The notes beneath the pieces were generated by a model, which saw only the letters and a program-made list of their open reading frames with translations, searched no databases and had not been told where the DNA came from. Shown piece by piece: positions 21,441 to 48,285 of a DNA stretch of 64,000 nucleotides. The stretch is from assembly GCF_003018255.1 (NCBI RefSeq), contig NZ_CP027440.1, one strand, 5' to 3'. A program made the translations under genes and the position numbers. Within the stretch, counting starts at the first letter, position 1. Each line of letters opens with the position of its first letter. The DNA comes from Escherichia coli (GTDB taxonomy: Bacteria; Pseudomonadota; Gammaproteobacteria; Enterobacterales; Enterobacteriaceae).

Positions 21441-22007
21441 TTATTTATAATCCAGCACGTAGGTTGCATTCGCCGTAACTGCACCTGGCGTTACAGGTGT
21501 TGCCTGATCAATTTGTTCCATCCAGGCAAAGAAATTCAGCGTTTGCTCGCTGGAGGTCGGAGCCAGGTCGATATCTGGAGTCGCGGTGCCTAAAACGATA
21601 TTGCTTTGATCTTTATTCATTAAACGCACGCCGACACCGGTGGCTTCACCCGTGCTGGTGTTGTTGAGAATCGGATCTGCGCCGGTGGTTTTCGCTGAGC
21701 TGTCAAAGGTGACTGCAACTTTAGAAATCTTGCCGCCGGAACCGTTGTTGGAGTTTTCCAAATCGCAGTTGACTAAGCGCAGGTCGACAGCAACGGCATC
21801 GCTGTGATGTGACTGATTAATGTGGCTGGTGGTCACCTGACCGAGTTCAACCTCTTTATCAATATCATCCTGATGTATTTCACACGGTGCTTCAATAACT
21901 TCACCTTTAAAGTGAATTTCACCGGATCCTTCATCAGCCGCATAAACAGGTGCTGTGAATAGCAGAGATATGGCCAGTGCGGCCAATGTTTTTTGTCCTT
22001 TAAACAT
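21441..22007 (-). CDS. ybgD: Fimbrial major subunit (188 aa)
   Basis: MFKGQKTLAALAISLLFTAPVYA signal peptide; AGGA RBS 7 nt upstream. Confidence 0.88.
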   Translation of the reverse strand: MFKGQKTLAALAISLLFTAPVYAADEGSGEIHFKGEVIEAPCEIHQDDIDKEVELGQVTTSHINQSHHSDAVAVDLRLVNCDLENSNNGSGGKISKVAVTFDSSAKTTGADPILNNTSTGEATGVGVRLMNKDQSNIVLGTATPDIDLAPTSSEQTLNFFAWMEQIDQATPVTPGAVTANATYVLDYK

Positions 22008-22334
22008 AGCTGAGTCCTTTAAATAATGAGATAGAGTGTTGCGAGGCAAGAATATATTAACTGACAGTTGAATGTATTTGGTTTTATTTAACAATATTAA
22101 AAAGCTTGTTATATAAAGAATGGAATAATTGAGTGCATAAATTTATTGTTTAATGAGATGAAAGATGGGGTGGGATGGATATGCATAATTTTCATTGGGT
22201 TAACAATGCTACCGGCAGGAAAGTAAAAAAATAAACTTATCATTCTGCTCAGTATGTGGCTTGTCACATTTTTTCACCTTATTAATGGGTATTTGCATCT
22301 GGTTTAATTTTTACAATTTATTATGTTCAGCCAT

Positions 22335-22370
22335 ATAAAAAAGAACCCGCTCTATTAAAGGCGGGTCCGG
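22335..22370 (-). terminator. Rho-independent terminator after gltA
   Basis: Minus-strand hairpin GACCCGCC...GGCGGGTTC followed by a run of 6 T. Confidence 0.7.
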
Positions 22371-22396
22371 AAAGTAAACGGCTTAGCAATCAACCA

Positions 22397-23680
22397 TTAA
22401 CGCTTGATGTCGCTTTTAAAGTCGCGTTTTTCATATCCTGTATACAGTTGACGCGGACGGGCAATCTTCATACCGTCACTGTGCATTTCGCTCCAGTGGG
22501 CGATCCAGCCAACGGTGCGTGCCATAGCGAAGATCACGGTGAACATAGAAGACGGAATACCCATCGCTTTCAGGATGATACCAGAGTAGAAATCGACGTT
22601 CGGATAGAGTTTCTTCTCGATAAAGTACGGGTCGTTCAGCGCGATGTTTTCCAGCTCCATAGCCACTTCCAGCAGGTCATCTTTGGTACCCAGCTCTTTC
22701 AGCACTTCATGGCAGGTTTCACGCATTACGGTGGCGCGCGGGTCGTAATTTTTGTACACGCGGTGACCGAAGCCCATCAGGCGGAAAGAATCATTTTTAT
22801 CTTTCGCACGACGAACAAATTCCGGAATGTGTTTAACGGAGCTGATTTCTTCCAGCATTTTCAGCGCCGCTTCGTTAGCACCACCGTGCGCAGGTCCCCA
22901 CAGTGAAGCAATACCTGCTGCGATACAGGCAAACGGGTTCGCCCCCGAAGAGCCAGCGGTACGCACGGTGGAGGTGGAGGCGTTCTGTTCATGGTCAGCG
23001 TGCAGGATCAGAATACGGTCCATAGCACGTTCCAGAATCGGATTAACTTCATACGGTTCGCACGGCGTAGAGAACATCATATTCAGGAAGTTACCGGCGT
23101 AGGAGAGATCGTTGCGCGGGTAAACAAATGGCTGACCAATGGAATACTTGTAACACATCGCGGCCATGGTCGGCATTTTCGACAGCAGGCGGAACGCGGC
23201 AATTTCACGGTGACGAGGATTGTTAACATCCAGCGAGTCGTGATAGAACGCCGCCAGCGCGCCGGTAATACCACACATGACTGCCATTGGATGCGAGTCG
23301 CGACGGAAAGCATGGAACAGACGGGTAATCTGCTCGTGGATCATGGTATGACGGGTCACCGTAGTTTTAAATTCGTCATACTGTTCCTGAGTCGGTTTTT
23401 CACCATTCAGCAGGATGTAACAAACTTCCAGGTAGTTAGAATCGGTCGCCAGCTGATCGATCGGGAAACCGCGGTGCAGCAAAATACCTTCATCACCATC
23501 AATAAAAGTAATTTTAGATTCGCAGGATGCGGTTGAAGTGAAGCCTGGGTCAAAGGTGAATACACCTTTTGAACCGAGAGTACGGATATCAATAACATCT
23601 TGACCCAGCGTGCCTTTCAGCACATCCAGTTCAACAGCTGTATCCCCGTTGAGGGTGAGTTTTGCTTTTGTATCAGCCAT
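22397..23680 (-). CDS. gltA: Citrate synthase (427 aa)
   Basis: [71 protein letters not shown]... Confidence 0.97.
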
Positions 23681-39787: not shown

Positions 39788-41185
39788 TTACCCCTTAAAC
39801 GTTAACCACGGTCGAAATCTGACCGCTGGCTGAATTAATCCGGCTTCTTGTTGGGCTTCGATAACCGGACCAATATCTTTATAAGCCGCTGGCGCTTCTT
39901 CAAAACGTCGTTCTTCGCGCAATGTGACGCATTGCCACGGCAGCGTTGACTCTTCAGTCGCGCGTGAGCGCATGGCCTGCCGACGCTGGCTGCGTCCTGC
40001 TCCGTGACTGCATGACCACAGCCACTCCGGGTTGCCGCAACCTACCGCAAGCCACGAATAATCGCCCATTGAACCGGGGATTAACGCCAGATTGCCCACT
40101 CGTGCCGGTGTTGCGCCTTTGCGATGAATATTCATTTCATGCTCGCGAAGGATGATGTTATGTGGCACATCCACCACCAGATGCGAATTGTCCTGATGAA
40201 AGAGATTGGCAAGACATACGCGCACCATTTCGGCAATTGTGACGCGATTTAACCATGCGTAACGCGCCGCCATTCCTATCGCTTGTAGATATTCCTCCGC
40301 CAGTCCGCCTGCCAGACCATATAACCCGCTTTGTGGATGTTTATGTCCGGTGGGCCATTCAGCACGGGCGCGATCCATCCAGCGTCTTCCGACGTAAAAG
40401 CCAACATCTCGCGATCCACTGTGGATCATCACCACAATATCGCCTGTTTTCAGCCCTTGTTGCCAGGCTACATGGCGATCAACCACGCTATCAACGACCT
40501 GAAGTTCAATAAAATGATTACCTGAACCCGGCGTACCCAGACAAGGATCGCGGAGTAATGCGCGGTCCGTTGCCTGCAGGGCGGGTGGGGCATAACGCGA
40601 ATGACTGTTATGCTCGTTAAGCCCAATGCAGCGGTCAATCTCTTGTACCATTCGGGGGATATTCGTGCGTATCCAGAGACCTTCTGATGGCAAGGTCGAC
40701 ACGCAATCTGCCGGTCCGCCATCAAAAAGCGCGGTGAACGCCTGTGCGGATAACGGAACATCGCGCTCATTTTGCAGTAGCACTTGCGTTAACCGCTGAG
40801 CGATGACGTCTTTATGCGCTTCGGCTTGCTCAAGTGTTAATCCGGTCGTCAGCAGCCGCATGCCACAAGAAATATCGGTGCCGATGGCGGCGGGAATGAC
40901 TAAATCCGGCGTTGAGGCCACCACCGCGCCAACGGGGACGCCATTGCCGGGATGAAAATCTGGCGTCGCGCACGTCTGGCGCACATAACCTGGGTGGTCT
41001 GGTAGCTTCACTTCTGCAAAATCAAGCAGTTGTGTTACTGCTTTTTCTTCCAGCGGCAGTTCGTCCGGCAGCAGTACGCGGGCACTGGCACCTGATGGAC
41101 GAGATAATGAAACAATATTGTTGGCGCGGGAAAGTTGGATCCCTTTGCGCAGAAAGGCTTTATCAAGCCTTGAAAGATGATGCAT
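39788..41185 (-). CDS. RtcB-family RNA 3-prime-phosphate ligase paralog (465 aa), orphan
   Basis: Conserved RtcB motifs: TPDFHPGNG, IPAAIGTDISCGMRLL, GTPGSGNHFIELQ, MIHSGSRDVG, IPGSMG, CSHGAGR, AYKDIGPVIEAQ; N-terminus about 30 aa longer than canonical RtcB; start codon uncertain. Confidence 0.85.
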   Translation of the reverse strand: MHHLSRLDKAFLRKGIQLSRANNIVSLSRPSGASARVLLPDELPLEEKAVTQLLDFAEVKLPDHPGYVRQTCATPDFHPGNGVPVGAVVASTPDLVIPAAIGTDISCGMRLLTTGLTLEQAEAHKDVIAQRLTQVLLQNERDVPLSAQAFTALFDGGPADCVSTLPSEGLWIRTNIPRMVQEIDRCIGLNEHNSHSRYAPPALQATDRALLRDPCLGTPGSGNHFIELQVVDSVVDRHVAWQQGLKTGDIVVMIHSGSRDVGFYVGRRWMDRARAEWPTGHKHPQSGLYGLAGGLAEEYLQAIGMAARYAWLNRVTIAEMVRVCLANLFHQDNSHLVVDVPHNIILREHEMNIHRKGATPARVGNLALIPGSMGDYSWLAVGCGNPEWLWSCSHGAGRSQRRQAMRSRATEESTLPWQCVTLREERRFEEAPAAYKDIGPVIEAQQEAGLIQPAVRFRPWLTFKG

Positions 41186-41490
41186 AACGCTGTCCTGAAA
41201 TATAGACGTTAAACAACCCCCTGTATGGCGAGGGTAATTTTGTCTTTCCGGTCAGCAGCCAGCAAAAGGGAAAGAAAACGCGCGTAGTGTATGTGGCGAT
41301 AGCAAGTGTTACAAGTGGTAAATCTGGCTTATTGTTAAAGAGGAATTATCTTTTGTGAAGTCTTTTAAGGCCATGACTCATTCAATTTAACCGGACATAG
41401 ATAATATATAACATAGGGTATCTAAATTTATCATTGTATACTTGTCATAATTCAAGTTGCATGTGCTGCATCGATGTTCGCTCACCCAGG

Positions 41491-42060
41491 TCACTTACTT
41501 ATGTAAGCTTCTGGAAATTCATTATTTGTTCCCTTCCTGCAACTTGACTTATTTAGAGTATATTCATGTATACACATCGAGATTTCAGCCAGCAGACGCG
41601 CATCTGGCGTGCCGTGGCGGATCTGTAGCGGTTTTTGCAGAGTTTCGGTGAGGCGACGGCAAGCTGCAACGCCGTGGTTAACGACCGGTAAACCGTTCAG
41701 TTTAGAGGTTCCGGCTTCGATGGATTTTTTAATCCCTACAGCCGCTTCTTCGTACCGATTCAGACGGGTATATGCATCGATGGTGCTCGGCAGCAGATCG
41801 CACTCTTCTTGTAGTGTTTTCAGTAGTTCGATGTGTTCGTCCATCAGCGCCACACCTGCGCGCGGTTGGCTAAGGGTTTTACCTTCCTTGTCTGCTTTCA
41901 ACAGCGCAAGAGAGAAGCGTTTATGCTCAGGAATGGTTTGTTGGTATTTAACGCCATCTTCAAAGTTTTCAACATCCTTGCCGGTTTCCCAGGTTTTCAG
42001 TACCTGTTGCCGCTCGGTCATGAATTCGTCATGGGTTAATTTCTTATTTCGAAGTTCCAT
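41491..42060 (-). pseudogene. glmE: Glutamate mutase E (epsilon) subunit, truncated: 189 codons versus about 480 in intact homologs
   Basis: [33 protein letters not shown]...[20 protein letters not shown]...[15 protein letters not shown]...[13 protein letters not shown] resembles the GlmE N-terminus; similarity ends near codon 165, then 24 unrelated codons and stop. Confidence 0.75.
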
Positions 42061-42078
42061 TGATTGCAGCCTTAATTG

Positions 42079-43467
42079 TTATAGGGTTAAGCATTGAATA
42101 CTGGTGCGCGCGGCGGCCAGCGGATCGACTCTGGCGACGTTTGCCAGCAGTGGTAATAGCCCCCGGGAATCGCGGTAATATTCAAATTCGGTCGGTAAGA
42201 GAATGCGTTTACCGTCGTCGTTTAACTCGCGGTATTTCAACCAGTGATGCATATCGAACTGACTGGCACGCGAGAGCCATCCGCCGGATCCGACGACTTT
42301 ACGCACGGTTGTCAGGTCACGTCCCATCTGTAAATCGACATTGCCGACGCAGGTGCAGACCTCTTTTTTGGTGCCCGCATGTCTTTCGGTGGCATAACCC
42401 ACACACAGTCCGGCCAGGACGGTATCGAAATATTTTTCTTCTGCATTCGCGGGTAAGTAGTCGGGATGAGCGACTAGATGACGGAGGTAATGATAAAAAG
42501 CGTCCAGCTGTGCGGGTTGCTGAGCAAAATTCACATTGACTAACTCTTTCGCACTTTCACCAACCACCATTGCCGAGACGCGCATTCCCAGATCTCCTTC
42601 CACCGTCCGTTTTACGAAGGGTTCCGGTACGCCATGTAAAACAGTGTCGGGCGAGAGCGTGTTGGCACTGGCGGAATAGACATCGGTGGTTGCGCCACCC
42701 ATGTCGATCAGCATGAACTCTTTCCAGCTGTGATCGACATTACTGATTGCCTTAACCAGTTCAAAGACTGTCCACGGTGTCGGCATTGGTTCTTCGCCTG
42801 TTTTATCAACAACGACATCCAGCCCTTTCCCTTTAACGATGCGTTTAAGGAATATGTCGCAGATAGCCTGGCGTGCAGCTAAAGGGTTCGGATGGTCAAG
42901 ATCGGGCAGAACGTTGTCGACGATGGTCAGGTCTTTATGCCCGAGGATCTCCTGCACCTCGTCCTGAATATCCCGGTTTCCGGCATAAATAATGGCGCAG
43001 TCGAGTTTGGATTCTGCCAACACACGGGCGTTATTCAGTCCGTAGCTTTCTTCTCCGCCATCGGTGCCGCCGGTGAACAAGAGAATATCGGGCTGCGTTT
43101 CTTCCAGTGCCTGGATATCACGGCGGTTCAGCTTGTAGGCGTAAGATTGCGCAATTTTAGCACCCGCAGAGTGAGCGGTTACTTTCGCGGTTTCCAGGGT
43201 GATAGAAGGCACCAATCCCATTGCGGCAACCGCCAGCCCACCTTTGGCAGAGGAGGAATACTTCAATGCAACCTCACCACTGTTTAACAGGGGGAGGGCA
43301 TCATCTACGTTTAACACCTGGTCCAGGCTGGAGAAAAACCCCTTCGCCAGATGATGGGTGGTGGTTGGGGTCAGTACGTGGTTAACCAACGTTAACGCGT
43401 CCCCCTCCCGGGCGAAGAGGGCTGCTTTGGTCCACGTCGATCCAATATCGACAGAGACGATTTGCAT
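42079..43467 (-). CDS. glmL: Glutamate mutase accessory protein GlmL/MutL-like (462 aa)
   Basis: [18 protein letters not shown]... actin/Hsp70-like ATPase fold; translationally coupled to glmS (TGATG overlap); placed between glmS and glmE as in clostridial operons. Confidence 0.75.
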   Translation of the reverse strand: MQIVSVDIGSTWTKAALFAREGDALTLVNHVLTPTTTHHLAKGFFSSLDQVLNVDDALPLLNSGEVALKYSSSAKGGLAVAAMGLVPSITLETAKVTAHSAGAKIAQSYAYKLNRRDIQALEETQPDILLFTGGTDGGEESYGLNNARVLAESKLDCAIIYAGNRDIQDEVQEILGHKDLTIVDNVLPDLDHPNPLAARQAICDIFLKRIVKGKGLDVVVDKTGEEPMPTPWTVFELVKAISNVDHSWKEFMLIDMGGATTDVYSASANTLSPDTVLHGVPEPFVKRTVEGDLGMRVSAMVVGESAKELVNVNFAQQPAQLDAFYHYLRHLVAHPDYLPANAEEKYFDTVLAGLCVGYATERHAGTKKEVCTCVGNVDLQMGRDLTTVRKVVGSGGWLSRASQFDMHHWLKYRELNDDGKRILLPTEFEYYRDSRGLLPLLANVARVDPLAAARTSIQCLTL

Positions 43468-43916
43468 CAGATTGCCTCTTCAAGAATACGAGTATCAACG
43501 TCATGACGTTGGTTGATATCGTGGGCCATCAGCTGACAAACATCTTCTAAGTCATGACTTGGGGCAAAGACGCGATCAAATCCCATCTCTTTGAATTTGG
43601 TTTCCACGTCAGCGAAGTCATGTTTTCCGACCACCAGGTTACCGCCCACATAGAGCAGGATGTCCCCCAGTCCACGCTCGATGCAGCGTTCGCGCATGCC
43701 CAGACAGTCGATATCGCCATGCCCATAGATAGAGGAGACGACAATCGCGTCAGCACCAGTTTCAATGGCAGCATCAATATATTCGTCCTGGCTGACCATT
43801 ACGCCCAGATTAATAACTCTGAAGTCATGGTTGCTAAAAACGCGGTCCAGAACTTTATTGCCTACTGCATGGCAGTCCGCGCCAATAACGCCAATCACAA
43901 GTGTTGCTTTCTTCAT
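43467..43916 (-). CDS. glmS: Glutamate mutase S (sigma) subunit, B12-binding (149 aa)
   Basis: [24 protein letters not shown]... with the DxHxxG cobalamin-binding motif; AGGA RBS 7 nt upstream of this ATG (the listed ORF extends 21 codons further upstream). Confidence 0.8.
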
Positions 43917-44463
43917 GGGTAATCCTTTGTAAGACAGAGAGTAAAATAAGTTACACACGTCGTATTTATGGCCGCTCATAACGGCACAGGTTTAATATCA
44001 CAGGAGTGTCTTTATCTGACCGTAATGTTGCAATTGATCTATTTTCAAAATGTCTTTCGGGAAATGATTGTTTAAAGTGTGTTTTCAAATTCTCATGTTA
44101 ATTCAGTGTGTTATGTCAACTAATGTCATGAATGTTAAATTTTTAAAATTAACTTGATTTGATGTATTGAGATAATTGTGATCAACTTCTAATTTGCATT
44201 TTAGTGATATGGGGTTAGCCATGAGTAAATGCATTTCATAAAAGTTAAGTCGAATTTCACTGCAATTCATCTCTGCTTAATGTAAAAATAATGTTGAAAA
44301 TAACAAATAATTAATGATTCATGCGAATTATGACCTTTGTTAGCTCTTTTGATTTTTCGTAAAAAAGAAAAGTACATGAAGGTGCTACCAGTACGAGAAA
44401 CGTTAATCAAAAGTTTTATTACGTCTGGCAATAACGCAGGCCATTTTTCGCGACAGGAGGGAT

Positions 44464-44886
44464 TTAATCAGTATAATCCTCATACAATAGGTCAGGATTT
44501 ACAGAACCGTTAACGGGGTTTTGGTGTTGAAATTTAGAAATGGTGGAGTCAATCAATGAAGACAGTATCGAAAAAATGACTGTGTCAGAATTAATTTCAA
44601 TTAATCCTTCTCGTTGTTGACCAAAAAAGATATTTATCTTGATTTCATTTGTACTACGGAAATCAATATGTAGTAATTTTTGATCGCTGAGATTTTCTGT
44701 TTCATAAATGTTTTTGGCGATAGTCGGATGTATTGATGCCAGACATCTGCTCAGATAAGCCAGATCCTTTAGGGAACACCCCGCTGAGTAGAGGATGTCA
44801 GAGAATTTTTGTGTGTCAACTGTTGGCTCTGAAGCGTATGTTGCATTGACTGGAAGGGTGTTGAAGGAGATTTGAGATGGGATCAT
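44464..44886 (-). CDS. Hypothetical protein (140 aa), small and acidic, low GC
   Basis: Intact ORF MIPSQISFNTLPVNATYASEPTVDTQKF...; no recognisable motif; sits in an AT-rich segment of the island. Confidence 0.5.
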   Translation of the reverse strand: MIPSQISFNTLPVNATYASEPTVDTQKFSDILYSAGCSLKDLAYLSRCLASIHPTIAKNIYETENLSDQKLLHIDFRSTNEIKINIFFGQQREGLIEINSDTVIFSILSSLIDSTISKFQHQNPVNGSVNPDLLYEDYTD

Positions 44887-44966
44887 TATTTAAATCTTTC
44901 CGTGAGTAATAAAAATTAATCCCCGGGCATTGTTTAGTAATATTTGCCACAGGGGATATATAAAAA

Positions 44967-45911
44967 TTAAAGTATTTGATTGGCATCGGTTAACTGATCA
45001 ATAACCAGTGCCAGATTGGTAAACATTTTGAAAAAGCGATACTGGCTCGGAATATCTCTTTCAAAGACGAAACATTCAATGTCATTGTTTGAAAAATAAA
45101 GGACTAGTGATGCTGATTCGTCAGGAAAAATATGGAAATATATCTGGTTACCAGAAGGAGGATAGTCCAGAAGAAGGGTATCTTTGCCCGTCACATACCT
45201 GTTGTGGTCGTGGATGCTGCGCTCACACTTCATCAGAGGTGTCATGATACTCATGTATTCATCTGATGTTAATATATTAAAATCACCATCCATTTTAAAG
45301 AAACGATAAAGTAACAGTACATCCTCTTGCGTAACCGGTTCGTTTGTTTTTAGAGGGAAATAAGTGGGAACCAGAAGATGAGGTTCTAATCTATTTTGTT
45401 GAGCGCTATAACTAAATTTGAACATAAATTCCGGATCGCTCATCAATTGAGCGACATAATTATGCCTGGCTTCAAAAATTTTAACTTTTATCAGGTTAAA
45501 TAAGTCTGTTTCGTCATCCTGTATTAAAAGACATTGGCCATAGCAGCCAGGCTTTTTTTCATTATAAGCAGAAACGGTTATTCTGTCAGGAGTGTCAACG
45601 TTATATCCAAAAGCCAGATAGTGACCTTCCTCATCGAGATTTGTTTCCAGGTTATTTAAATTCATCACATGAAGTGTTTGCAATGCTGATTCAATGAGCT
45701 GTTGACTCTCTGAGGTAAATGTTTCGCGCTGCGTTGTATAAAGTGTATCGATTCCAACGACTATCCGATGTGGGTCAAGGATGGCGGCAATCATCTTTAT
45801 TACCTGCACAGTCATGGGTGATGTCATTGATTCTTTATCTGTTTTTAGAGGATCATTAGATGGCCAACCTGAGAAGCGATTGACAGCAGAACTGATAATA
45901 TCAGGACTCAT
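44967..45911 (-). CDS. Hypothetical protein (314 aa), low GC
   Basis: Intact ORF MSPDIISSAVNRFSGWPSNDPLKTDKESM...; GAGG RBS 8 nt upstream of ATG; no signal peptide or TM helix evident; no family recognised. Confidence 0.6.
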   Translation of the reverse strand: MSPDIISSAVNRFSGWPSNDPLKTDKESMTSPMTVQVIKMIAAILDPHRIVVGIDTLYTTQRETFTSESQQLIESALQTLHVMNLNNLETNLDEEGHYLAFGYNVDTPDRITVSAYNEKKPGCYGQCLLIQDDETDLFNLIKVKIFEARHNYVAQLMSDPEFMFKFSYSAQQNRLEPHLLVPTYFPLKTNEPVTQEDVLLLYRFFKMDGDFNILTSDEYMSIMTPLMKCERSIHDHNRYVTGKDTLLLDYPPSGNQIYFHIFPDESASLVLYFSNNDIECFVFERDIPSQYRFFKMFTNLALVIDQLTDANQIL

Positions 45912-46365
45912 AGCAGCAACCTCATTGTAATCAAGCGAGGCGCTGAGCGTACTCGGCTATAGAAAAACTAACTTGCAAAAATCGCTCATTTTTCATTTAT
46001 CAGGCGAAAGTGGTCTCTGTTCACTCAGAAACAATCACTCCCGCTAAGTCATACCTGTTTCATCGATACATTTAAGTGATTATTACTAATGAAACAATAA
46101 CATAATGGGCTTACGGCCGGTGCTCATAAACGCAACAATCAATTAACTTTGATAAAAATATGTTATGTAAAATAGCAACAAATTGGCTAATCTAATCAAT
46201 TGGTATTATAAAAAGTGGATAAGGCGGTTCTGTTAAATAAAACACTGGTTTTTTATCTATACCTTTTCATTGTAATAATTGTGTTGCATAAATATTTCAC
46301 AATAAATTAACAATAAAATCACCAATGATCTATGGTTTATACATAATTAACATATTTGGTTGATT

Positions 46366-46379
46366 TTGATATAAATCAA
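46366..46379. promoter_or_regulatory. FNR/CRP-type palindromic site in the cydA upstream region
   Basis: Perfect TTGAT-ATAA-ATCAA (TTGAT N4 ATCAA) about 340 bp upstream of cydA in an AT-rich leader. Confidence 0.55.
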
Positions 46380-46716
46380 TTTTTAATTCTTGAAAAAAAT
46401 CTGCAAAACACGATAAATTGTCGTAGATCAAATTGGTGAGATCGTGACAATTTCGCTATAAATTGATCACTGTCGAAAAATGCAAATTTGCTCAATAAAA
46501 ACCTGTTTATTGTAAGGATTTTGCGGCGTAATATAATTACGGGATCAATTTGGTTTATTCATTAACACATTTGTAACTTTTTTATCATTGTCTTTTCCTC
46601 TTTTGATGAAATGGCAACGATAGAGGCGAGCAAATAATTTTGTATTGGGGCATGCGTGTGACCCTTTCTAACGGGGTTCACTCTCGGAGTCTTCATGCGA
46701 TGAGCAAGGAGTCATG

Positions 46717-48285
46717 ATGTTAGATATAGTCGAACTGTCGCGCTTACAGTTTGCCTTGACCGCGATGTACCACTTCCTTTTTGTGCCACTGACGCTCGGT
46801 ATGGCGTTCCTGCTGGCCATTATGGAAACGGTCTACGTCCTTTCCGGCAAACAGATTTATAAAGATATGACCAAGTTCTGGGGCAAGTTGTTTGGTATCA
46901 ACTTCGCTCTGGGTGTGGCTACCGGTCTGACCATGGAGTTCCAGTTCGGGACTAACTGGTCTTACTATTCCCACTATGTAGGGGATATCTTCGGTGCGCC
47001 GCTGGCAATCGAAGGTCTGATGGCCTTCTTCCTCGAATCCACCTTTGTAGGTCTGTTCTTCTTCGGTTGGGATCGTCTGGGTAAAGTTCAGCATATGTGT
47101 GTCACCTGGCTGGTGGCGCTCGGTTCAAACCTGTCCGCACTGTGGATTCTGGTTGCGAACGGCTGGATGCAAAACCCAATCGCGTCCGATTTCAACTTTG
47201 AAACTATGCGTATGGAGATGGTGAGCTTCTCCGAGCTGGTGCTTAACCCGGTTGCTCAGGTGAAATTCGTTCACACTGTAGCGTCTGGTTATGTGACTGG
47301 CGCGATGTTCATCCTCGGTATCAGCGCATGGTATATGCTGAAAGGTCGTGACTTCGCCTTCGCTAAACGCTCTTTTGCTATCGCTGCCAGCTTCGGTATG
47401 GCTGCCGTTCTGTCTGTTATTGTTCTGGGTGATGAATCTGGTTACGAAATGGGCGACGTGCAGAAAACCAAACTGGCTGCTATTGAAGCCGAGTGGGAAA
47501 CGCAACCTGCGCCTGCTGCCTTTACTCTGTTCGGCATTCCTGATCAGGAAGAGGAGACGAACAAATTTGCGATCCAGATCCCTTACGCGCTGGGCATCAT
47601 TGCAACGCGTTCCGTGGATACTCCAGTTATCGGCCTGAAAGAACTGATGGTGCAGCATGAAGAACGCATTCGTAACGGGATGAAGGCGTACTCTCTGCTC
47701 GAGCAACTGCGTTCTGGTTCTACCGACCAGGCGGTTCGTGACCAGTTCAATAGCATGAAGAAAGACCTCGGTTACGGTCTGCTGCTGAAACGCTATACGC
47801 CAAACGTGGCTGATGCGACTGAAGCGCAGATTCAACAGGCAACCAAAGACTCCATTCCGCGTGTAGCGCCGCTGTACTTCGCGTTCCGTATCATGGTGGC
47901 GTGTGGCTTCCTGCTGCTGGCAATCATCGCGCTCTCTTTCTGGAGTGTCATCCGCAACCGCATTGGCGAGAAAAAATGGCTGCTGCGCGCCGCGCTGTAC
48001 GGTATTCCGCTGCCGTGGATTGCTGTAGAAGCGGGCTGGTTCGTGGCTGAATATGGTCGCCAACCGTGGGCTATCGGTGAAGTGCTGCCGACAGCTGTGG
48101 CGAACTCGTCACTGACCGCAGGCGATCTCATCTTCTCAATGGTGCTGATTTGCGGCCTGTATACCCTGTTCCTGGTGGCAGAATTGTTCTTAATGTTCAA
48201 ATTTGCACGCCTCGGCCCAAGCAGCCTGAAAACCGGTCGCTATCACTTTGAGCAGTCTTCCACGACTACTCAGCCGGCACGCTAA
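46717..48285 (+). CDS. cydA: Cytochrome bd-I ubiquinol oxidase subunit I (522 aa)
   Basis: [41 protein letters not shown]... Confidence 0.97.

Follow-up and report, generated by a model that had tools for sequence, protein, structure and literature searches.

A probable promoter module joined to near-neutral AT-rich DNA upstream of glmS in a methylaspartate-island remnant of Escherichia coli

The 547-bp intergenic gap that lies upstream of glmS (positions 43917-44463) in a 64,000-nucleotide stretch of the Escherichia coli contig NZ_CP027440.1, hereafter the window, is quite probably the upstream regulatory region of a methylaspartate-pathway operon, in which a constrained proximal promoter module is joined to a near-neutral, AT-rich distal part. 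In intact islands, the glutamate fermentation operon glmS-glmL-glmE-mal-...-fumD would be driven from this gap. The proximal module (43917-44076) is proposed to comprise a leader of 82 nt, a weak promoter of the sigma-70 type, and an invariant operator that directly adjoins the -35 element, with a core at 44034-44048 and an extension to ~44070. The promoter would depend on an activator, and the likeliest binder is the GcvA-like LysR regulator of the island (ECs_0755 in Sakai). The distal part (44077-44463) would belong to a long AT-rich divergent region between cydA and glmS that is older than E. coli and within which a pair of orphan ORFs now lies. As the window strain has lost the regulator and most of the operon, its promoter may be regarded as an orphan relic that probably fires little. 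The feature is thus real but ordinary, a catabolic-operon regulatory region that has been orphaned here by deletion.

The gene order around the gap begins with mngB on the plus strand and continues with a rtcB-family gene (39788-41185, minus strand), a 5' remnant of glmE annotated as a pseudogene (41491-42060), glmL (42079-43467, minus strand), and glmS (43467-43916, minus strand). The gap itself is bounded on its far side by a hypothetical ORF of 140 aa (44464-44886, minus strand), which is followed by a hypothetical ORF of 314 aa (44967-45911, minus strand), an 802-bp AT-rich region, and then cydA on the plus strand. The RefSeq annotation of near-identical genomes identifies glmS as the B12-binding subunit S of methylaspartate (glutamate) mutase, and the protein matches the Pfam B12-binding domain PF02310 (E=1e-13); a reading of glmS as the glucosamine-6-P synthase gene is consequently wrong. 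This gene is the first of the operon served by the spacer. Its start is the ATG at 43916 (MKK..., with the ribosome-binding site AGAGGA/AAGGA), as in RefSeq, and both the start and the ribosome-binding site are conserved in 40 species, while a 63-nt extension to an ATG at 43979 is not conserved. Because the conserved start of glmS is at 43916, the true gap runs from 43917 to 44463. The preliminary description had given the spacer as 43980-44463, or about 480 bp, which located it correctly and misplaced its left edge.

Of 5426 complete E. coli genomes, 1135 carry this gap, which is unannotated in them. O157:H7 has the whole operon, which encodes glmS, glmL, glmE, methylaspartate ammonia-lyase, an AtuA-family protein, a DUF4387 protein, a transporter, the mesaconase fumD, and cobA (also described in PMC4682846). 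The gene for a LysR-type regulator (ECs_0755 in Sakai) lies at the far end of the island, convergent with the operon and ~10 kb away from the gap. In the window strain, everything past the first third of glmE has been replaced by rtcB and a K-12-type mngRAB. Homology to glmE begins at ~41574, where it is joined to the rtcB-family gene, and the junction region spans 41186-41574. The earlier wording of a glm remnant operon was therefore apt, as glmE is cut at ~41574 and this strain lacks the regulator along with most of the operon. The remnant arrangement (mngRAB, rtcB, glmE', glmL, glmS) is rare: the island LysR gene occurs in 1128 of the 5426 complete genomes as compared with 1135 for the spacer, and it is absent from about 7-15 of the 1135 spacer-bearing genomes.

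The candidate promoter lies on the minus strand at the glmS end of the gap. A -35-like hexamer TTGCAA (44028..44033), in which TTG is invariant, is separated by 17 bp from a -10-like hexamer GACACT (44005..44010), in which the A at position 2 and the T at position 6 do not vary between species. An invariant box, TTTTGAAAATAGATCAATTGC, adjoins the -35 hexamer of this weak sigma-70-like promoter. Its core is the invariant 15-mer TTGAAAATAGATCAA (44034-44048, minus strand), which contains the dyad TTGA-N7-TCAA and fits the pattern T-N11-A. The conserved operator block as a whole covers 44034..44070 on the minus strand, and its upstream part, ..TTTT..GAAAGAT.TT, is semi-conserved. The centre of the operator falls near -43, such that it directly abuts the -35 element. 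The order ATCAA, TTGnnn, 17 nt, nAnAnT is found in 51/51 sequences (49 unique) from more than 10 genera of the Enterobacterales, with GACACT, GAAACT, CACACT, CACATT, CATATT, and CATCGT as the variants of the -10 hexamer. Across these 51 sequences the 17-nt spacer is invariant in length and unconserved in sequence, and such a combination is characteristic of a -35/-10 pair.

The two hexamers have the spacing expected of a sigma-70 promoter (17 +/- 1 bp), and their match to consensus is weak (7/12 overall, with 3/6 for the -10 hexamer). A match of 7/12 is below the threshold of the consensus scanner used, which explains why its scan of the gap returned no minus-strand promoter; it returned no intrinsic terminator either, including on the downstream side of the 140-aa ORF. 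The poor match and the operator centre near -43 together suggest that the promoter requires an activator. It has been reported that methylaspartate ammonia-lyase, an enzyme of the pathway, shows no detectable activity in lab-grown O157:H7 (PMC4682846), which would fit a promoter that has to be induced. The geometry of the conserved -10 hexamer would place the transcription start near 43998, giving a predicted 82-nt glmS 5' leader (43917..43998, minus strand), which has a diversity of 0.01-0.03 among 13 alleles and carries the ribosome-binding site AAGGA at 43923-43927. The E. coli/Klebsiella/Citrobacter group also conserves an alternative -10 hexamer, TATTAA (43990-43995). The preliminary description regarded the whole spacer as the likely promoter region; purely comparative evidence upholds this for the ~70 bp at 44005-44070, at the glmS end, and the remaining ~390 bp evolve near-neutrally. 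Two promoter-like matches are present on the plus strand (44149-44176 and 44450-44477, with 9 and 10 of 12 positions, respectively), pointing away from glmS and antisense into the 140-aa ORF. The total number of promoter-like matches in the region equals the shuffle expectation, and such matches are typical of the spurious promoters of AT-rich DNA.

The depth of conservation was examined with a GlmS scan of one genome per species, which yielded 80 loci. The 15-mer is identical or differs by one mismatch in ~35 loci from Escherichia, Klebsiella, Citrobacter, Salmonella arizonae/diarizonae, Enterobacter, Lelliottia, Buttiauxella, Pluralibacter, and Pseudescherichia, and degenerate forms of the box are found in Yersinia, Hafnia, Morganella, Budvicia, and Yokenella. 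Conservation across genera is limited to the box, with its semi-conserved extension to ~44070, the two hexamers, and the ribosome-binding region. In Yersinia, Budvicia, Hafnia, and Morganella the module is located 170-283 nt before the glmS ATG (185-283 nt in the first three; e.g., L044:5481-6000 and L041:5700-6000), implying that these genera have long glmS leaders. Similarity to the region upstream of glmS was not found outside the Enterobacterales among the 80 GlmS loci. Furthermore, a weight-matrix scan of 938 kb (the window, the Sakai region, and 79 glmS loci) revealed no stray copy of the operator, and searches for the 15-mer with up to three mismatches in the window and the Sakai region gave chance-level matches only.

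The division of the gap into two parts is evident from an alignment of 13 Escherichia alleles, among them O157:H7, a minor lineage that shares 88-89% identity with the window, and a cryptic Escherichia species. Nucleotide diversity is 0.004-0.03 from 43917 to ~44076 and ~0.09 over 44077-44463, and the latter value is the same as that in the adjoining 140-aa ORF. Distances between pairs of alleles are 0.006-0.03 in the proximal part and 0.05-0.18 (Jukes-Cantor) in the distal part, as compared with a glmS dS of 0.05-0.12 for the same pairs of E. coli alleles; for the cryptic species (L029) the glmS dS is 0.55. The proximal ~160 bp evolve several-fold more slowly than the synonymous sites of glmS. 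Set against the glmS dS values, these pairwise distances indicate strong constraint on the proximal 160 bp and roughly neutral evolution of the distal ~390 bp. Consistent with the latter behaviour, distal alleles differ from one another by indels of 1-3 bp, and the distal part can be aligned to E. whittamii only in two patches (44154-44207 and 44281-44322).

A comparison of the segment 43917-45911 with L003 and L085-L089 shows two allelic lineages in E. coli, a major lineage with an identity to the window of 95% or more and a minor lineage of 88-89% identity that is present in 19 genomes. The flanking glmS and the proximal part of the cydA upstream region diverge far less between these two lineages, a pattern that suggests either an old polymorphism or recombinational import of the spacer and ORF pair.

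The wider intergenic space appears to be old. In Klebsiella, Citrobacter, Salmonella arizonae/diarizonae, Pseudescherichia, and E. whittamii, glmS diverges from cydA across 850-1580 bp of 32-40% GC that contain no hypothetical ORFs. The presence of this ORF-free gap in other genera indicates that the long AT-rich gap is ancestral and that the two ORFs are an addition specific to Escherichia. Both ORFs have a GC content of 37-38% and a dN/dS of about 0.3-0.5 (~0.3 for the 140-aa ORF). The pair is missing from E. whittamii and the other genera, and in Escherichia sp. MOD1-EC7003 (L029) it shows decay. Neither ORF has a match above the curated threshold in Pfam, NCBIfam, or PADLOC or a significant match in PHROGs, and searches with the 314-aa protein of 5.8 billion sequences and of 1.84 billion representatives both recovered only Escherichia-type relatives or fragments. 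By sequence comparison, the 140-aa and 314-aa ORFs are Escherichia-restricted orphans.

The identity of the protein that binds the box has been approached by searching each locus with its own site. A second copy of the operator, in which 25-26/32 bases are identical, was found in this way in Yokenella regensburgei (L056:1022-1076) and Enterobacter sp. ENT03 (L055:1022-1076), and it carries its own hexamer pair, TTGCCT-17-TATATA. On one side of the second copy lies the orthologous LysR gene and on the other, transcribed divergently from it, an operon that encodes FecCD/BtuC-like, ABC ATPase, TonB-dependent receptor, and periplasmic-binding (BtuF-like) proteins. From its gene content this operon is a B12-type uptake system (btuCD / TonB-receptor / BtuF-like), and through the second operator copy the glutamate mutase cluster is tied to B12 uptake. 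In Rhodoferax and Aromatoleum, a LysR gene is directly divergent from glmS; the box is absent from these beta-proteobacterial loci with a divergent LysR gene. The dyad TGA-N7-TCA within the 15-mer conforms to the generic T-N11-A pattern of LysR operators. A LysR gene adjacent to and divergent from the box is thus found at the second copy in Yokenella and ENT03, and not in E. coli, where the gene is distant and convergent. The upstream region of E. coli ECs_0755 contains a 12/15 match (TTAAAAATAGTTTAA) that is no better than chance.

The second copy beside a LysR gene, the divergence of LysR and glmS in Rhodoferax and Aromatoleum, and the T-N11-A dyad point to the box as the operator of the GcvA-like LysR-type regulator of the cluster, acting as an activator, and this assignment has something close to an even chance of being correct. 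To our knowledge, TTGAAAATAGATCAA matches no known site, and binding by the regulator is putative. Other regulators were considered by inspection. An FNR site requires TTGAT-N4-ATCAA (TTGA-N6-TCAA), and the TTGA-N7-TCAA of the box is one base too long; the half-sites of CRP are absent from the box. Together with FNR and CRP, sites for sigma-54, ArcA, GadE (the GadE-box), and CytR were ruled out by eye, on the basis of spacing or of non-conserved positions. We tentatively propose, as a possibility on which we would not yet rely, that the box and the GcvA-like LysR regulator form a previously undescribed regulon, extending from Escherichia to Yersinia and Morganella, that coordinates the acquisition of B12 with B12-dependent glutamate fermentation, and of which the window strain retains an orphan operator.

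Other explanations of the gap have been weighed against a regulatory region with a promoter module at one end. The preliminary description favoured a spacer that is mainly an H-NS nucleation or silencing element, made of curved AT-rich DNA, which keeps a horizontally acquired glm island off. H-NS prefers AT-rich DNA of such composition, and the description of the spacer as strongly AT-rich is accurate: the GC content is 0.312 for 43980-44463 and 0.322 for the full gap in a window of 0.512, and only 0.87% of 484-bp windows are equally AT-rich, falling in three clusters (21841-22474, 43831-44764, and 45831-46784). (The first of these clusters spans the 5' end of a ybgD-like fimbrial gene and the gap before gltA.) The density of TpA steps is likewise raised (0.082 in the gap vs 0.045 in the window), and the undetectable methylaspartate ammonia-lyase activity cited above would also be compatible with silencing. 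The predicted curvature does not follow suit. In an approximate wedge model, run with our own script and wedge parameters, the mean bend is 11.0 degrees, where the window gives 9.6 +/- 5.5 and random sequence of the same composition 12.5 +/- 1.2, and the maximum bend is exceeded by 88% of the composition-matched controls, such that the segment is no more bent than its composition predicts and the earlier suggestion of probable curvature is not supported. Nor is there enrichment of the high-affinity H-NS motif (TCGATAAATT-like), for which a single match with up to two mismatches was observed as compared with 1.5 +/- 1.2 expected in composition-matched controls; this sole near-match in the gap falls inside the conserved box. 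With curvature and motif density both within the range of composition-matched controls, H-NS binding is to be expected from AT content alone. H-NS probably coats the distal DNA owing to its composition, which holds equally for the entire 2.8-kb stretch 43917-46713 (GC 0.35), and such binding would be generic rather than specific to this interval. Of the proposed nucleation site, then, the AT-richness stands, and the curvature and motif enrichment do not. Selection, moreover, acts on a short, sequence-specific, spacing-constrained module while the AT-rich bulk drifts neutrally. A primarily silencing role is accordingly judged unlikely. Alternatively, the box might play an architectural part, as a site for IHF or as an UP element bound by the alpha subunit of RNA polymerase, and so boost a constitutively weak promoter. 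Its WATCAA followed by TTGC-TT comes near the IHF consensus WATCAANNNNTTR, and an A/T-rich stretch lies at about -57 to -38, the usual position of an UP element. Against this, 21 consecutive positions, including G and C, are invariant in more than 10 genera, which is stricter than is usual for IHF sites or UP elements, and in the E. coli-group site the W and R of the consensus are occupied by G and C, respectively. The identity of the second copy in Yokenella and ENT03 also extends to non-IHF positions, and that copy lies beside a LysR gene. An architectural role is hence improbable.

It has also been considered that the spacer hides a functional small protein, of the Z0896/ECs0765 type, or a small or structured RNA, for which a B12 riboswitch serving the B12-dependent mutase would be a biologically sensible candidate. 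The absence of any ORF of 60 codons or more from 43980-44463, as noted previously, was confirmed; the longest is 58 aa (44337-44513, plus strand, overrunning the interval), followed by 55 aa and 54 aa. The 55-aa ORF (44103..44270, minus strand) was once annotated as hypothetical protein Z0896 in EDL933, and an exact look-up, from which the name is taken, returned 113 database entries. Its frame is disrupted by frameshifts or stops in 6/13 alleles (L003, L085-L088, L029), and no ORF of 54-58 aa escapes stops or frameshifts in other alleles. Current RefSeq annotation leaves a gap in the locus tags at this position (ECs_0764 then ECs_0766; RS04320 then RS04330). Judged by its sequence, Z0896/ECs0765 is not a conserved gene; the old call was rightly dropped, and the gap needs no new call. 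The small intergenic genes identified by Ribo-seq in Sakai include none between 831793 and 855717 (PMC5597208, S2 Table), an interval that contains the Sakai gap (853164-853710); the coordinates of that table agree with NC_002695.2 at the end of ECs0767. The same study lists XECs075, a translated 93-nt intergenic gene at Sakai 855717-855809 (PMC5597208). These coordinates correspond to window positions ~46466-46561, upstream of cydA, and no open frame could be recovered there in either the window or NC_002695.2. With regard to RNA, Rfam covariance models, the cobalamin families included, gave no match in 43917-44463 at E values up to 10, and the only three hits across 41000-47000 lie outside the gap and are at chance level. 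Fold z-scores are unremarkable (-0.66 for the leader, -1.09 and +0.46 for the two distal strands), and RNAalifold found no consensus structure in a MAFFT alignment of 16 leaders. A small hairpin, GCCG-UUAUGAG-CGGC (43971..43985, minus strand), can be assigned with low confidence to ~+14 to +28 of the leader. A hairpin occurs at ~+10 to +30 in the leaders of 14/19 species, with differing sequences and a mean z of -1.19 over mutually related sequences; in the window sequence alone it is not significant (P=0.2), and a position-conserved leader hairpin is suggestive only. Neither a conserved protein gene nor a structured RNA was thus detected in the interval, and a hidden gene or RNA is highly improbable. 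Given its near-neutral evolution, the broken ORFs, the lack of an RNA family match, and the lack of unusual folding, the distal part (44077..44463) is best regarded as filler, a quickly evolving, non-coding sequence that follows the 140-aa ORF.

The preferred reading, a compact promoter module followed by drifting AT-rich DNA, is of interest for the biology of the island. About one in five E. coli genomes, that of O157:H7 among them, carry the methylaspartate island, as do many opportunistic enterobacteria. A search of the literature for the locus tags ECs0764-0767 and Z0894-Z0899, for H-NS ChIP in O157, and for how glutamate mutase is regulated returned nothing on this locus. What is new here is a precisely mapped, deeply conserved candidate operator-promoter for the enterobacterial glutamate-fermentation island, the regulation of which is undescribed in the literature searched. 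This operator-promoter could provide a handle on when these bacteria ferment glutamate.

Among known systems, the module most resembles the catabolic promoters of E. coli that are regulated by LysR-type proteins, such as those controlled by TtdR (ttdABT, L-tartrate fermentation), DmlR (dmlA), and TdcA (tdcABC). Like the candidate glmS promoter, these combine a weak sigma-70 promoter with a T-N11-A dyad near or overlapping the -35 element, and, as in the glm island, their cluster also encodes the regulator and the pathway serves the anaerobic catabolism of organic acids or amino acids. In contrast to these systems, the E. coli glm island has its LysR gene at the opposite end, where it converges on the operon, rather than divergent from the promoter. 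The neighbouring cydAB upstream region, which in K-12 is long, AT-rich, and multi-promoter and is bound by ArcA, FNR, and H-NS, shares its ancestral intergenic space with glmS. The glmS module is, however, separate and compact, and in E. coli the two orphan ORFs part the two regulatory regions. The gap also resembles H-NS-silenced, horizontally acquired DNA in its GC content of 31-35% and its location in a strain-variable island, but it differs from such imports in that it lacks excess curvature or motif density and is ancestral to several genera rather than recently acquired. Finally, the clostridial methylaspartate-pathway clusters contain glmS, glmL/mutL, glmE, mal, and mesaconase genes together with a cluster-encoded regulator, as does the glm island. 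The regulator in the clostridial clusters is of the GntR type (PMC4682846, Fig 4 legend), whereas that of the enterobacterial island belongs to the LysR type.
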